A DNA stretch of 64,000 bases from Eledone cirrhosa (lineage: Eukaryota). The notes under the pieces were generated by a model. The model made no database searches and had not been told where the DNA came from. It was given only the letters and a program-made list of their open reading frames with translations. The position numbers were made by a program, and so were the translations under genes. Numbering within the stretch: position 1 is the first letter of the stretch; every line of letters begins with the position of its first letter. Below, in pieces: positions 2,752-62,545 of this stretch. Location: assembly GCA_964016885.1 (NCBI GenBank), contig OZ024745.1, positions 124,000,001-124,064,000 of the forward strand, given 5' to 3'.

Positions 2752-3160
2752 AATGTAGAAGGTGAGTTTTATTGTAGCACAATAAAGCAATGCAAATATC
2801 AGATAAGTACCACTCTACAGTTTGTCGGACTGGAGTATAAATAATATAAGATCAAAAGATGGTTAAAAGAGTTCCAAGTATTTTATTATGCACATTTCAA
2901 AAACAAATATCATCATGAGATGATATCTGCGTTTTCATCAGATAAAATAGGGATACATGATATGAAGGTTAAAAAAACACTTGTGAATAGTGAAGTTGAT
3001 TTAAAACTTCACTATTCACAAGTGTTTTTTTAACCTTCATATCATGTATCCCTATTTTATCTGATGAAAACGCAGATATCATCTCATGATGATATTTGTT
3101 TTTGAAATGTGCATAATAAAATACTTGGAACTCTTTTAACCATCTTTTGATCTTATATTA
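2752..3160. mobile_element. Fold-back hammerhead element (about 155-bp arms 2842-2997 / 3005-3160) between (TA)n tracts
   Basis: Near-perfect inverted repeat with a hammerhead core in each arm. Confidence 0.8.
3053..3123 (+). ncRNA. Type I minimal hammerhead ribozyme (mirror copy on - strand about 2878-2950)
   Basis: TATTTTAT-CTGATGA-16-bp stem II-GAAA-T(GTGC)A-TA-ATAAAATA; stem I fully complementary; predicted cleavage after AUA at 3115. Confidence 0.8.
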
Positions 3161-3778
3161 CATATATATATATATATATATATATATATATATATATATA
3201 TACATACATATATATATATATATATATATATATATATACATATATATGTATGTATATATATATATATATATATATATATATATATATACATATATATGTA
3301 TGTATATATATATATATATATATATATATATATATACATATATATGTATGTATATATATATATATATATATATATATATATATATATATACATATATATA
3401 TGTATGTATATATATATATATATATATATATATATATATATATATATATATAGGAATGAGTAGGACCCCGACGGCTGAGCTCAAGCCGTTTCGATGGCTA
3501 ATTCTGGACTCCTGGTTCCTTACCACATTTCCTTCGTTATATATATATATATATATATATATATATATATATATATATATATATATATATATATATATAT
3601 ACATATATATGTATGTATATATATATATATATATATATATATATATATATATATATATATATATATATATATATACATATATATGTATGTATGTATGTAT
3701 GTATGTATCTCTCTCTCTCTCTCTCTCTCTATATATATATATATATATATATATATATATATATATACATATATATAT
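3161..3778. repeat. (TA)n/(TATG)n/(TC)n compound microsatellite containing an 87-bp hammerhead-family fragment (3452-3538)
   Basis: Direct reading; the insert matches the elements at 31271 and 40552. Confidence 0.9.
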
Positions 3779-4800
3779 CGGTATGTCTGAGTTAATGAAA
3801 TTAAAGTAATTTTGCATAGACATTTAGGTCCTAGACGTATAAATGATAAATTCCAACTATATTAATGTTATTATTTAATACCTTTAGGCAAGACACAATA
3901 TTCAAGTGTTTTGCAACTATTTAAATATATCTCCAAATTCAGAATTGTTGTTTTTATTGTGAGGCCCCATGTCAGCCTTGATCAAGCAGATCTCTGATCA
4001 AAAGTATTTCAGTCATTGCCATCCTCCTTTCTTTTTGTATATCATACTACATTTTTCAATGTATCCCTTTTTCTCCTTGTGATTTGAATGATATTAGGCT
4101 GCTAATTCTAGCATCTTTTTGTGTATCAGGGATTTACATTTTCCATTATATATATATTTTTTCTTTCAAGACTATTATTTGAATGATTTTTGACTGCTAT
4201 TTTTAGTAGGTTGACCAATTGCTTAAATTACCCTTCATTGATTGAATAAATGGTATAACCCTTTAGCATTTACATTACTCTATATTTACTATCATATGTT
4301 AATGGTAAAGGCTTTACCTCGCATAATTATCTCACAAAATATCGAATCTATGAGATTTTGATATTATTTATTTTCAGAACAATACCTTAACATCAGTGTG
4401 AGTGGCTGTACAGTACTTTGGAAAATGTCTTTGTCATAGCCTTCGCATGACCTAAGACTTTTGAGCAGTTGCATGCAGAGATTTGGTGATGCCTGGGGCC
4501 AACTCACTGATTGTATGCACCTAAAACTCAAGTGTAGGACAAGTACTGAGAAATGTGATCAAGGAAGATATTTTAAGCATGAAATAAACTGTGCAAACAT
4601 AGAAAAGACATTTCATACTGCACATTAAATAATATGCAAATCTACAGGACAGATGAACAAGCATACATGTAATTTTTTAAAGTTTGTCTAGGCATAAGCA
4701 TTGAATTTCAAGTTAATAGATTTTTCAGCTTTTTTATTTGAGCAGAAAACTGGGAACAGATTTTGGATGGGTGCTGGAGAAATCTAAGTGGGTCGTGCAC

Positions 4801-5029
4801 TCAGTATCTGTGTTGAATGGAGAACATTGTATGATCCTTTGGTTGGATGCTCAAACCACCTGCCCGGATATGGATGTCCCAAACTATTGTGCCCTCTTTT
4901 GAAGGACCAAGACTTTTCTTTGAGGATAACTTTCTACTTTTCCTCCTATTAGTCTTTGAGGCTCTAAAAATAGTAGTAAACTCAGCCATTCCTCTTCTCA
5001 TTAAACCATAAAAACTGATAACGAAACAC
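4801..5029 (-). CDS. Candidate terminal coding exon of an unidentified host gene
   Basis: Non-repetitive; cctaaccatgttacag acceptor, then G|CFVISFYGLMRRGMAEF...QHRY*; phase fits the candidate exon at 18209-18330. Confidence 0.3.
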
Positions 5030-59094: not shown

Positions 59095-61080
59095 ACAGAC
59101 TACTGAGGAGACTTGTGGCTGGAGCAAAGAACCAGTCAAACAGAAGGTGACATGGTGGTGGATCAACGCCATGGATAGATCCATTAAAGAGACAGAGATT
59201 GAAAGATTGGAAAATGGGGCAGCAAAGATCAATACCAGGAAGCTAAAACTGAAACCAGACAACAGGTATATGTAGCATGGAAAGAAGCTGAAAGCAGGAG
59301 GTTGCCAATAACTTACAATATAAGTTTCAGAGATATGAGATGTTCTGCTTTTAAAGCAGTGTGTCTGTGTGGATTGGGATTTTGTTAGGGGAAAGGGTGT
59401 TCAAAATGACAATGGGCACAGCATTGCTGATCCTCAAGAAAAAAGGACTTGAAATATTACTATGAGAGCCCAAAGAAAGTGAATGAGTATAGGGAAGAGA
59501 GACTACCCCCAGTTGACTCATCAAAGGGACCAGCTATCGAAATTGACAGTTATAGCATCAAAGATGCAAACAAGAAGATGAAAAATGGTAAAGCATCTGA
59601 GAAAGTAGTAGCCAAAATAGTAACCTGTATAGTCAATCTGGTAATACGGATGGGGGCCATACCTAATGATCAGTATAGTAGTATATGCTACAAAAAGAAA
59701 GGTGATGATCTAAAAAGGAGCAGCTGCAGAGGTCTAAAACTAATGGACTAAATTATGAAAGTGATGGAAATTGTTCTATCATAACTAATTAGGGAAACTA
59801 GCAGAAAAACCACCCGAATAATATCAATATACACACTATACATGCTAGCAGAAAAACCACCCGAAGAGTGGTTTTTCTGCTAGCATGTGTAGTGTGTATA
59901 TTGATATTATACGTAAGTATATATATATATACATGTAGATTTGATACATCAAATAAAATCGTAATTGACAGTATAAACAGAAATTGAACGAAGACGTTGT
60001 TACACTGTCTTATGTAATGATACATTAAAAAGACAATATTATATATAAACTGCATTAGGAGAAAATTAGTGACAGAAAATTATTATGTTTATTTAAGTGA
60101 TCTCCACCGGAAGTGTTGACATCACACACTCTCTCTTTCTATATATATGGTAGTTGAAGGGGTGGTGGTGGTGGCAATGATATACCGGAAGTGCAACTTT
60201 GAAAAGAAGTCAATTTTAAATTATTTATTTTTACGAAATTATTTTTGTTTACGAAATTTAGTAGAAAAATTATGTAATATTCATTCATTATTGGCAGTAT
60301 CAGTAGAGGGTTGGACACCAAGCTTTGTAGCATAGTTACGTCCCTTTATGGTCTGAGTTCAAACCCCGTCGAGGTTAACTTTGCCTTCCATCCTTACAGA
60401 GTCGATAAAATAAAGTACCAGTAATGTACTGAAATAATTGCTGGTCTTGTGCCAAAAGTAGAAACAATTATTTATTCAAAGTAATCCAACTTATTTTACT
60501 AATGGGATAAAAAAAAAATAAACCGTACGCAGTCCCGCAGACCTTCCTTTATTATAGTTTAGATAGTCAAATTAGATGAGATGCAGTTGGTCTTATACCT
60601 GTGGGGAGTATTACAGATACACTCTTCTTAGCATATCAACTGCAAGAGAAGTTCTTAGCTATAAGTAAGCCTCTGTATCTAGCTTTTCTTTACTTAGAGA
60701 AGGCCTTTGACAGAGTAGCTCGATCTGTTAACTCGTGGTCCTTAAGGAAACTAAGTGTAGAATAATGTCTTGTGAAAGCAGTACAGAGGAGCTGGCAGTA
60801 TAGGAAGAATAGGAAGTAGACAACAAAAGCTTTCTCTCTATAGCTTGTGTGCAACAAATGATACTGCATAGTAATGATACATGGACAGTAAATGTTGAAG
60901 ATGTGTGAAGACTGGAGAGAAATGAAATGAATATGCTTCAATTGATGTGTCATGTTAATATGTATGAATGACAAAATATGGATGAAATGAGAGAGAAACT
61001 GGGTATAAGAGGAATCAGCTGCTGTATGTAAGCGAGAAGATATGGATATGTGATGTGCATGAATAATGATTGCTGGATGA
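59095..61080 (+). mobile_element. Old RTE LINE fragment split by a Helitron
   Basis: TEETCGW, KGPAIEID, RGLKLMD, LIRE|IVKLDEMQ and LEKAFDRV remnants. Confidence 0.75.
59798..60563 (-). mobile_element. Non-autonomous Helitron with nested SINE A
   Basis: - strand A|TCTAAACTATAATAAAG ... CTAG|T; homologous to 26692-27151; no TSD. Confidence 0.8.
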
Positions 61081-61189
61081 TATCTATCTATCTATCTTTC
61101 TATCTATCTATCTATCTATATCTATTTATTTATCTGTATATCTATCTATATTTATCTATCTATCTATCTATATTTATATATATATATCA

Positions 61190-62545
61190 AATTAAAAAAC
61201 AGAGTTCAAAACACACATTAATCCCCTATAATTTAATGAGCTCAAGGAATAGAATCTGGGCTCTTTATAAATCACCATATAGAGAAAAGTACACATAGAG
61301 ATATGTGTTTAATTATAGGGGATCAAAAACCACCAGAGTGACGAACATATAACCTATGGAAGGAATGGTGAATACAAATCAATAAAAAGAATATATTAAA
61401 GAGTACTAACCATCTGAATATAACAATACACCTGGACATGCTCAAATTAGAGCATGTTTCGCTATAAAAAGTGAAGAATCCATATTATAGATGTAGCTCA
61501 TCAGTGGGTGCCTAGCAATACGATCAACACTTCATTCATTCATCATTTCATTTTATGTCCACTTTTCCCTGCTTGCAAGGGTGGGACGGGAACTGATTCT
61601 GGCTTGATTTCTACAGTTGGATGCTCTTCCTAACACCAACCTCATTTACAGTGAGTGCTGGGTGCTTTTTTGCCGTGGCACCTCCTGGACCACTTCACAG
61701 TGGAATGATAGGGACCCCAGTCCCTATCATCTCATTTCTACAGCTAAGTAAACTGGAGCAATGTGAAATAAAGTGTCTTGCTCAAGGAAACAACACATCA
61801 CCCGGTCTGAGAATTGAACTCACAACCTTTTGATTGGAAGGCCAATGCTCTAACCACTAAGCCATGTGCCTCCAAATAAATATATCAGATAACTAAGAAA
61901 ACATGCATGGTATAGAGCAAAGACATGTGCGTTGATTTATAGCCCAGAATCTATTCCTTGAGCTCCTTAAATTATAGGGGATTAATGTGTGTAATGTGTG
62001 TTATAGGGGATTAATGTGTGTAATGTGTGTTATAGGGGATTAATGTGTGTAATGTGTGTTAAATTTTAATTTGATATTTTGGCTCCTAATTCATTTCTGT
62101 ATGTAAGTAAAGCTTCTAAAGTTGAATGGTTCTGAGCTGCTGTTTTTAGCAGTCTTTTGGTCTATTCACACCACCATGGGCTATATAACACATGTATTTC
62201 CTCTATACTATGTGTGTTTTCTTAGTTATCTGATATATTTATATGGAAGTGTTGAATGAAATGATGAATGAATGAAGTGTTGATCGTATTGCTAGGCACC
62301 CACTGATGAGCTACATCTACAATATAGATTCTTCACTTTTTATAGCGAAACATGCTCTTATTTGAGCATGTCCGAGTGATGTTGTTATAATCGGATGGTT
62401 AGTACTCTTTGATATATTCTTTTTATTGATTTGTATTCCCCATTCCTTCCGTAGGTTATATGTTCATCACTCTGGTGGTTTTTGATCCCCTATGATTGAA
62501 TACATATCTCCATGTGTACTTCGCTCTATATGGTGATTTATATAT
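61190..62545. mobile_element. Fold-back hammerhead element with nested SINE B
   Basis: 61265-61550 is inverted against 62255-62542; 61873-61945 against 62178-62248; 61210-61262 against 61940-61992. Confidence 0.8.
62297..62378 (+). ncRNA. Type I hammerhead with full 7-bp stem III (mirror copy on - strand 61429-61510)
   Basis: CACCCA-CTGATGA-GCTA...TAGC-GAAA-CATGCTC(TTATTT)GAGCATG-TC-CGAGTG; stem I partly decayed. Confidence 0.8.

Follow-up and report, generated by a model that had tools for sequence, protein, structure and literature searches.

The 64,000-nt window examined here (forward-strand positions 124,000,001 to 124,064,000 of contig OZ024745.1, assembly GCA_964016885.1, Eledone cirrhosa) contains many type I hammerhead ribozyme motifs, mostly in or beside (TA)n tracts, and the question is to which elements these motifs belong and how such elements are inserted. 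An original prediction had taken them for a dense population of non-autonomous retroelements with a link to Penelope, many of them folded back and possibly uncatalogued. The reading favoured here, with a probability of about 0.68, is that the window holds ends of Penelope-like elements (PLEs) of the Hydra clade, together with units that lack an open reading frame (ORF), inserted into (TA)n, and that the PLE protein would start reverse transcription at two sites of its RNA, each set by a hairpin. The elements belong to a known clade; the two questions that they open are how a PLE reverse transcriptase (RT) chooses its internal starts, with a tail on one side only and an inverted copy, and which enzyme moves animal retrozymes.

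Protein-coding families, their two ends and a shared hairpin

The genome was searched with nine families (A, B, C, D, E, F, G, H and I) plus J2. A 29-mer of family A yielded 2,117 exact genomic matches and its reversed control none, and upstream of this family lie tandem units of 3,543 bp with an intact ORF of 719 amino acids (aa) encoding an RT and a GIY-YIG endonuclease (one natural copy spans L051:5372-7528 on the minus strand). Links to ORFs of the Hydra type were found for families A (32 of the 196 arms seen), B (3/49), C (13/84), D (5/69), H (4/53) and F (7/80); family L gave one ORF link, and one of its derivatives retains the first ~20 codons of the Hydra ORF. A type I hammerhead is present in the pseudo-long terminal repeat (pseudo-LTR) of A, B, C, D, F and H; none was found in family L. 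At C1:91,469,000-91,495,999 (loci L051-L053) at least five 3,543-bp units of family A are arranged head to tail with an inverted arm at the end, and one amino-acid variant alternates unit by unit, as if a dimer had been repeated.

The 719-aa protein is encoded by a single ORF, with YRDD at position 348 and a GIY..YIG-like motif at position 591. Its predicted structure (pLDDT 88) had TERT as the best fold match (E 7.6e-9, TM 0.34); a Pfam search assigned no family and a PDB profile search gave 0 matches, and the endonuclease call for family A is based on the motifs and on PF01541 in the homologue P0001. Family A carries RWR at position 37 (RWK-type) and DKT at position 117 in place of DKG; among 34 aligned proteins the RWK-type motif occurs in 32 and DKT in all 34. 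The protein has a CxCx5C linker and late CxxC and CxH motifs, and lacks the CCHH cysteine pair between GIY and YIG; the 25 of the 34 proteins in which the GIY-YIG pattern was found have 0-1 cysteine in that interval. Homologues at E <= 1e-30 numbered 2,027 among the 8,000 candidates scored, mostly near 40% identity, and no relatives were found in viral contigs.

These characters agree with the Hydra clade of Craig et al. 2021 (PMC8557442), which is defined there by hammerheads and (TA)n insertion and for which one Octopus bimaculoides family is listed. Its members have one ORF for an RT with GIY-YIG at the C terminus, in which RWK-like, DKT and CxCx5C motifs occur and CCHH does not; their pseudo-LTR holds a type I hammerhead; and they insert into (TA)n, form partial tandems and bear an inverted 5' copy and a tail on one side only. 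The copies examined here likewise sit in (TA)n, occur in tandem and inverted order and have the one-sided tail. Assigned by published diagnostic motifs, families A, B, C, D, F, H and L are almost certainly of Hydra-clade origin. Since the same families continue into Hydra-type ORFs, their copies in the window are read from sequence as ordinary 5'-truncated ends of protein-encoding elements. The Penelope link of the original prediction thus stands for these seven families; its description as non-autonomous fails for them, each having its own protein, and fits E, G, I, K and P. The proposed novelty of the class was in part forestalled by the published Hydra PLEs with hammerheads and (TA)n insertion, the octopus family included. 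Compared with the published description, at least seven abundant families occur here, some of them very young, with tails of 80-137 nt versus 30-40 nt, 3' untranslated regions of 0.7-1.5 kb, a helix II of up to ~125 nt and U3-A8 cores.

Every one of the 12 families tested stops at two fixed 3' positions, short and long, which are separated by 30-137 nt and followed by TA runs, the long end being the short end plus a tail. A run of at least three TA repeats borders the element in 219 of 236 cases at the short end and in 303 of 362 at the long end, as compared with 11% of random 30-mers (the ends of family F were mis-set in this count), in agreement with the predicted preference for TA runs. The fold-back shape noted earlier was seen in 234 head-to-head insertions (identical inserts entered once), 228 of which consist of one long and one short arm, four of two long and two of two short arms; several searches used arm-plus-tail queries, by which one arm is long and the partner arm left free. 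By class, the long-short combination accounts for 160/163 ORF-linked cases, 46/47 cases in families E, G, I and K, and 22/24 in J2, which has no ORF link in 102 arms and one 269-nt tandem. The inner reach of the arms varies from tens of nucleotides to kilobases. Miniature inverted-repeat transposable elements were rejected as an explanation, as fixed-length, identical-ended inverted repeats are absent and the arms end at different sites. The hammerhead lies ~20-250 nt upstream of the short end, and its cleavage was likewise rejected as the cause of the ends, which fall ~20-250 nt downstream of the cleavage site, with the inner turn points also off it.

A shared element was recognised in the tails: RYTC, a variable upper stem and loop, a 2-nt bulge starting with U, and GARY, usually followed by RCT. 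Its start falls 6-10 nt beyond the majority of the ends. In family A this hairpin occurs twice, one copy after each end, and in several elements the second copy lies 20-55 nt before the start of the ORF. An automatic search placed it at +6 to +9 in 11 of 20 testable ends (both ends of A and K, the short ends of B, C, D, H and J2, and the long ends of I and L), against a background of 8.8% per random 23-nt window; left out of the count were family F, whose reference included TA flank, and the long ends of D and J2, for which there was no read-through copy. At five further ends (C-long, H-long, I-short, L-short and G-short) visual inspection reveals the hairpin, the copy used having one mismatch. 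The bases directly past nearly every end match the TA run for ~3 nt, which is likely the site where the primer pairs. By eye, lower-stem pairs alternate between A-U and G-C among families; base-pair swaps are visible in K, I, L336 and L341, at a further position in K, L336 and L341.

Several observations count against the hairpin as the whole signal. Nine of the 20 testable ends gave no automatic match; the hairpin is absent at both ends of E and at the long end of G, and the long end of B has its 5' strand only. Families E and G still follow the long-short rule without the full hairpin; therefore either the hairpin as defined is not the whole signal, or other PLEs move these two families. The covariation is based on pairs judged by eye. 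Furthermore, the motif was defined from these same tails, which makes the count within the genome partly circular, and for this reason other organisms provide the independent test.

Hydra relatives at 36-43% protein identity carry the hairpin, often twice just before the ORF start; one at 37% identity in metagenome contigs (L327/L328) has two upstream of its ORF, of which the automatic search detected one and visual inspection the other. The outside test covered 12 loci with Hydra PLEs in contigs filed as bacterial genomes (L335-L346). Seven of them gave an automatic match at the expected place, and L341 shows two hairpins by eye; L335, L337, L339 and L344 gave no automatic match, two of these stopping short of the region, and three loci had additional stray matches far downstream. 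Copies ending 7-8 nt before the hairpin were recognised by eye in L328, L336, L346 and L339 (the last in comparison with L345). Hammerheads and TA runs occur alongside the PLEs in these bacterial-filed contigs, which are probably animal host DNA in metagenome bins. Taken with the positions in E. cirrhosa, these sequences make it fairly probable that the hairpin sets the start of reverse transcription.

Units without an open reading frame

Families E, G, I, K and P consist of units with periods of 337, 437, ~513, ~555 and ~420 nt, respectively, and sequence upstream of a copy runs round into its own 3' end in 37 cases for E, 11 for G, six for I, and two each for K and P. A 24-mer of family E had 1,139 exact genomic matches (reversed control 0). 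The longest ORFs beginning with methionine measure 30-84 aa in E, G, I and 453 nt of K. The predicted circular folds are stable for E (z -5.3), G (z -12.4) and K (z -3.8) and not stable for I (z -1.6). A search for RNA data sets that contain family E listed none. By their sequence these families fit the animal non-LTR retrozymes (Cervera and de la Pena 2020, PMC7229834; Li et al. 2026, bioRxiv 10.64898/2026.07.22.740005), with which they share ORF-less tandem units of a few hundred nucleotides, a type I hammerhead and PLEs alongside; unlike the published retrozymes, the copies here are mostly dispersed monomers to dimers. Cervera and de la Pena 2020 named PLEs as a strong candidate mobiliser of animal retrozymes, and the argument of Li et al. 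2026 on the origin of vertebrate retrozymes relies on homology to pseudo-LTRs and on co-occurrence. In the present genome the units are tied to a PLE clade by their insertion scars (two fixed ends, inversion, TA target) and by the shared hairpin.

The four ORF-less families tested (E, G, I and K) insert with the same signature as the ORF-linked families. It is very probable that Hydra proteins move I and K, and the same reading is narrowly preferred for E and G. An unlikely alternative is that E, G, I, K and P are moved by other machinery (Naiad, Neptune or a long interspersed nuclear element, LINE) or spread as satellites, and that they are linked to Hydra only through a joint presence in TA runs; if E and G are taken by themselves, this alternative is a serious one, at somewhat less than an even chance. 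E has no hairpin and G at most a weak one, and Naiads likewise target (TA)n according to PMC8557442. Links to Hydra ORFs were absent from all five families (E 0/141, G 0/65, I 0/45, K 0/15 and P 0/16 arms, looked for with Hydra-type proteins only). Transfer by Hydra proteins is further weakened by the lack of DNA similarity between the ORF-less units and the five Hydra ends compared. Short tandem cases occur in families A and D too (three and two, respectively). Other machinery is opposed by the 46 of 47 long-short fold-backs, the tail signature having been described as unique to PLEs, and by the Hydra hairpin at both ends of I and K, automatic at three of the four. It is also opposed by a 366-nt unit of family L (at L156/L157, one duplicated locus, and at L101) that retains both hairpins and the first ~20 codons of the Hydra ORF, without a hammerhead; this non-autonomous unit apparently arose by internal deletion.

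Three tandem copies of a 592-nt unit that has a U3-A8 hammerhead, together with an inverted copy, were observed at L284:600-2400 in the sample of 10-kb stretches and represent a further retrozyme-like family. Many family I matches (L264-L276) have the same flanks on several contigs, which identifies them, on sequence grounds, as one old insertion amplified inside a larger repeat.

Origin of the fold-back insertions

In the mechanism proposed for the Hydra proteins, the GIY-YIG domain would cut both strands within (TA)n, and each free end would pair over ~3 nt with the AU-rich linker ahead of one hairpin and prime a cDNA. The hairpins would position the RT, so that the two sides of the cut prime at two different sites, and the two cDNAs would be linked through their distal ends, in many cases at a short palindrome, to give an inverted shape with the tail on one side (twin priming). 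As the second hairpin is situated a short way 5' of the ORF, a read-through or circular transcript would have to serve as template, which would also explain the tandem arrays. The same proteins would act in trans on I, K and the deletion derivative of family L, ORF-less units in which both hairpins are retained, and the hammerhead would cut tandem transcripts into unit-length RNAs able to circularise, without setting the ends. The evidence covers the elements, ORFs, ends, pairing rule and hairpin position. In its fullest form, in which the twice-repeated hairpin fixes both RT starts, every fold-back arises by twin priming, and the retrozymes of this genome originate by internal deletion of the parent element and hitch-hike with both hairpins, the scheme is given even odds. 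In LINE-1 twin priming, two primers from both sides of the target cut produce an inverted 5' part; the second primer of LINE-1 lies at variable internal positions, whereas both starts are fixed here and the arms face outward to element-defined ends.

Known PLE biochemistry includes target-primed reverse transcription, cutting of both strands and internal initiation (PMC11167929). In that study of a Poseidon PLE of Anolis, PAc, by Frangieh et al. 2024, the tail produced in vitro is the interval between two internal RT start sites, a feature called unique to PLEs, and hammerhead mutants still insert. PAc resembles the present elements in its two adjacent internal starts, in the cutting and extension of both target strands and in the dispensable hammerhead, and differs in that its starts lie in an AC-rich stem-loop within the ORF, without target homology; here they lie in a non-coding leader at a fixed distance before two copies of one hairpin, and AT-rich linkers match the TA target. 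Against the proposed mechanism, Frangieh et al. 2024 report no difference between the strands in start-site use. The same study, in its passages on insertion, does not settle the later steps, and a conserved signal is not named there. Neither the start-site hairpin nor the strict long-short pairing is part of the description of the Hydra clade in PMC8557442, and the literature consulted describes neither of them, nor a tie between retrozymes and PLEs based on insertion scars, though supplements or subscription papers may hold one. A term search of the Octopus vulgaris repeat paper gave no occurrence of 'Hydra', 'hammerhead' or 'ribozyme'.

The origin of the two arms was approached by mapping 106 pairs of families A, B, C, D and H on long natural copies. 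Both arms reach equally far in 65 pairs, the long arm reaches further in 17, and the short arm reaches further 5' in 24; in these 24 pairs each arm has sequence absent from the other (short-end arm up to 2.8 kb, long-end arm 0.34 kb). In L022, L008, L155 and L183 the long arm does not even span the tail, so that the arms share nothing. One arm was therefore not copied from the other, and it is probable that each fold-back combines two independent cDNAs, one per start site. The competing explanation is that one cDNA from the long site folds back on itself, or primes itself on an antisense template, and is converted into a hairpin copy, which the endonuclease then cuts at an internal TA-like site to make the short end; the conserved hairpin would in that case be the DNA or RNA signal for the cut, not a second start site. 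Such snap-back could account for the 65 equal-reach pairs, which are near-perfect palindromes turning at AT-rich self-complementary spots, and this weighs against twin priming as the origin of all pairs; the equal-reach class was inflated by one search query. Arkhipova et al. 2013 read head-to-head inversions in this way, by self-priming on an antisense template, with the tail optional on one inverted pseudo-LTR, and the D. virilis endonuclease is cited in PMC11167929 as requiring the tail for recognition. Snap-back is nevertheless judged improbable: the short-end arms of the 24 pairs carry sequence for which the long-end arm offers no template, the hairpin is placed in the same way after either end, and two RNA start sites have been measured directly in another PLE (PMC11167929).

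Still less probable is that the hairpin is a translation or RNA-packaging signal, with its adjacency to the insertion ends a by-product. Its second copy stands 20-55 nt before the ORF start in several elements, as such a signal might; the hairpin is retained in the ORF-less families I and K, however, two copies of it are present, and its distance to the insertion ends varies little (+6 to +9), whereas that to the start codon is not so constrained. Chance motifs or assembly artefacts such as fold-back chimeras are ruled out for practical purposes, even though AT-rich, microsatellite-rich DNA folds readily and four low-complexity false cores were counted among 416, by 7 cores versus 0.09 after shuffling, by the 2,117 and 1,139 exact genomic matches versus 0 for the reversed controls, by arms that have diverged independently, one of them split by a later LINE, and by the same architecture in the DNA of other animals.

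If twin priming at two hairpins is correct, the hairpin would set the starts much as an RNA element sets the telomerase template; PLE RTs are the sister group of telomerase, and an RNA element that positions initiation bears on the origin of template boundaries. It would also supply the cis signal behind the PLE tail and the inverted pseudo-LTR, name the mobiliser of retrozymes, and amount to a portable ~100-nt signal for the TA-directed insertion of a chosen RNA. The genome offers near-identical intact protein copies, a short RNA element kept across distant animals, and natural ORF-less substrates.

Hammerhead cores and features of the window

A strict type I descriptor found 7 cores in 5 insertions of the window (+3061/-2941, +25976/-25851, +41285, -42149 and -51561), with the core boxes and helices I, II and III in type I order, versus a mean of 0.09 (maximum 1) in 100 dinucleotide-preserving block shuffles of the window. 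With helix I of at least 4 bp, 8 cores were found versus 0.15 (maximum 2; 60 shuffles), +31096 being the additional one. Families A, B and H escaped the initial descriptor because it limited helix II to 60 nt and demanded a C3-G8 core. The hammerhead folds are genuine; self-cleavage is predicted. The Rfam scan suggested earlier as a check gave no hammerhead family among the matches listed (150 of 170), which are microRNA models on palindromes.

The original prediction had named 18 hammerhead sites, of which 15 are upheld and 3 are not, and had overlooked the core at 31096; its expectation of counts above composition-matched shuffles was correct. All nine sites called complete or near-complete hold, and five satisfy the strict descriptor. 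As to the others, 25522 has a helix II of ~125 nt by folding, and a related family with the same layout satisfies the descriptor; 40940 has mismatches in its stems, 53718 one core substitution at position 4, and 62297/61429 a weak helix I. The copy at 42301 is interrupted by a later RTE insertion of 2.8 kb and continues at 45172. Among the nine sites called halves or degenerate, six are hammerhead pieces: 3452, 31271 and 40552 each hold the 3' half of the family A hammerhead, which when complete has the U3-A8 core variant; 38833 has an intact counterpart in locus L279; 45478 and 51715 also hold. Site 45715 is the antisense of a PLE tail, and 51975 and 53843 have no core in the copies examined; all three are nonetheless repeats of the same TA-flanked type.

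A genome sample of 200 kb, drawn at round coordinates from 16 contigs in 20 pieces of 10 kb, contained 9 strict cores versus 0.55 after shuffling, and 23 insertion sites of window families; the class is therefore genome-wide. Strict cores occur about once per 22 kb in the sample and once per 9 kb in the window, which is roughly 2-3 times denser. Extrapolation from the 9 cores in 200 kb gives, as a rough figure, 1e5 intact cores across the 3.0-Gb genome. The predicted unrelatedness of the sequences is matched by 42 sequence families among 416 cores (the four low-complexity false ones included) at 377 loci, in 1.49 Mb chosen with a bias towards these elements. Cervera and de la Pena 2014 (PMC4209133) had reported that one genome can hold minimal hammerheads of many unrelated families, with pairs on opposite strands and with the U3-A8 core; a short palindromic helix III and opposite-strand pairs 100-700 bp apart are shared with the minimal PLE hammerheads described there, in contrast to which families A and I have a long, stable helix III and predicted cleavage as monomers. 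For C, D, E and F, cleavage is predicted to require dimers.

Regarding the Hydra PLE ends, a family C fold-back with ORF links in its family occupies 2753..3166 (long arm on the minus strand, 2753-2997; short arm on the plus strand, 3005-3166; cores -2941 and +3061). Family B forms a young fold-back at 24728..25738 (cores -25069 and +25532; helix II ~125 nt), whose best genomic copies are 99-100% identical over 573 nt at all 40 places scored; its activity is for this reason judged, from sequence, to be very recent or ongoing. A family D fold-back follows at 25757..26174 (cores -25851 and +25976). The family F fold-back at 42050..45328 has its short arm on the minus strand (core -42149) and its long arm on the plus strand, split within the hammerhead by an RTE LINE at ~42351-45171. 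Only the long arm (minus strand) of family H is present at 53565..53830, with core -53801 (one substitution) and a 60-nt helix II region, and a family L fold-back lies at 53845..54069.

Family A is represented by a piece at 3453..3537, in which a short arm on the minus strand with the hammerhead 3' half is joined to a distal tail piece on the plus strand, by a tail fragment at 16622..16695 (plus strand), and by two fold-backs, one at 31272..31474 with a long minus-strand and a short plus-strand arm and only the 3' half of the hammerhead, the other at 40553..40783 with the short arm on the minus and the long arm on the plus strand. The tail of the latter holds a candidate start-site hairpin at 40711..40734 (plus strand), 8 nt past the short end.

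The ORF-less families occur as follows. Family K occupies 30688..31235 (long arm minus, short arm plus; core +31096), with a putative start-site hairpin after the long end at 30812..30836 on the plus strand (a read-through copy, recognised from the sequence and the family test). In family E an inverted long arm is followed by ~1.5 tandem units at 40794..41444 (cores +40948, mismatched, and +41285, intact). Family G has a single arm at the short end at 51385..51650 on the minus strand (core -51561), and family I lies at 61187..62542 (long arm minus, short arm plus; cores -61504 and +62303), broken by later insertions. A family P fragment is found at 26192..26408 (plus strand, end approximate), the hammerhead being located upstream in other copies and not here.

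Of the remaining families, M forms a fold-back with a near-complete hammerhead at 38830..39117, and J2 one with a degenerate minimal hammerhead and no clear unit length at 45477..45670. A J2-like tail fragment lies at 30539..30590 (minus strand), and a PLE-type tail fragment that carries the start-site hairpin and is not a hammerhead at 45709..45800 (minus strand). Family N (51672..51762, plus strand) has core +51720 with helix II and a weak helix I, whereas a repeat fragment of family O (51900..52040, minus strand) had no hammerhead core in the copies seen.

No Hydra ORF pieces were found within the 64-kb window; its RT pieces belong to LINEs, which we take to be RTE-like and R4/Dong-like. 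A near full-length LINE with several broken frames at 32914-36982 (plus strand; RT PF00078 and a C-terminal restriction-like nuclease motif) is presumably R4/Dong-like, and a second 3' piece lies at 14690-15268. The RTE-like LINE at 42351-45171 (minus strand; AP endonuclease PF03372) is younger than the family F insertion, because it sits inside the family F hammerhead. Pieces of a mariner-like transposase, recognised by eye and without a Pfam match, are located at 52861-53178 (minus strand) and ~56019-56327. Three tRNA-like heads (Rfam RF00005, 28-33 bits) at 23386-23449, 39470-39527 and 61807-61864 probably belong to short interspersed nuclear elements. Minisatellites occupy 1288-1743 (48 nt), 13380-14420 (61 nt) and 19780-21238 (~23 nt).

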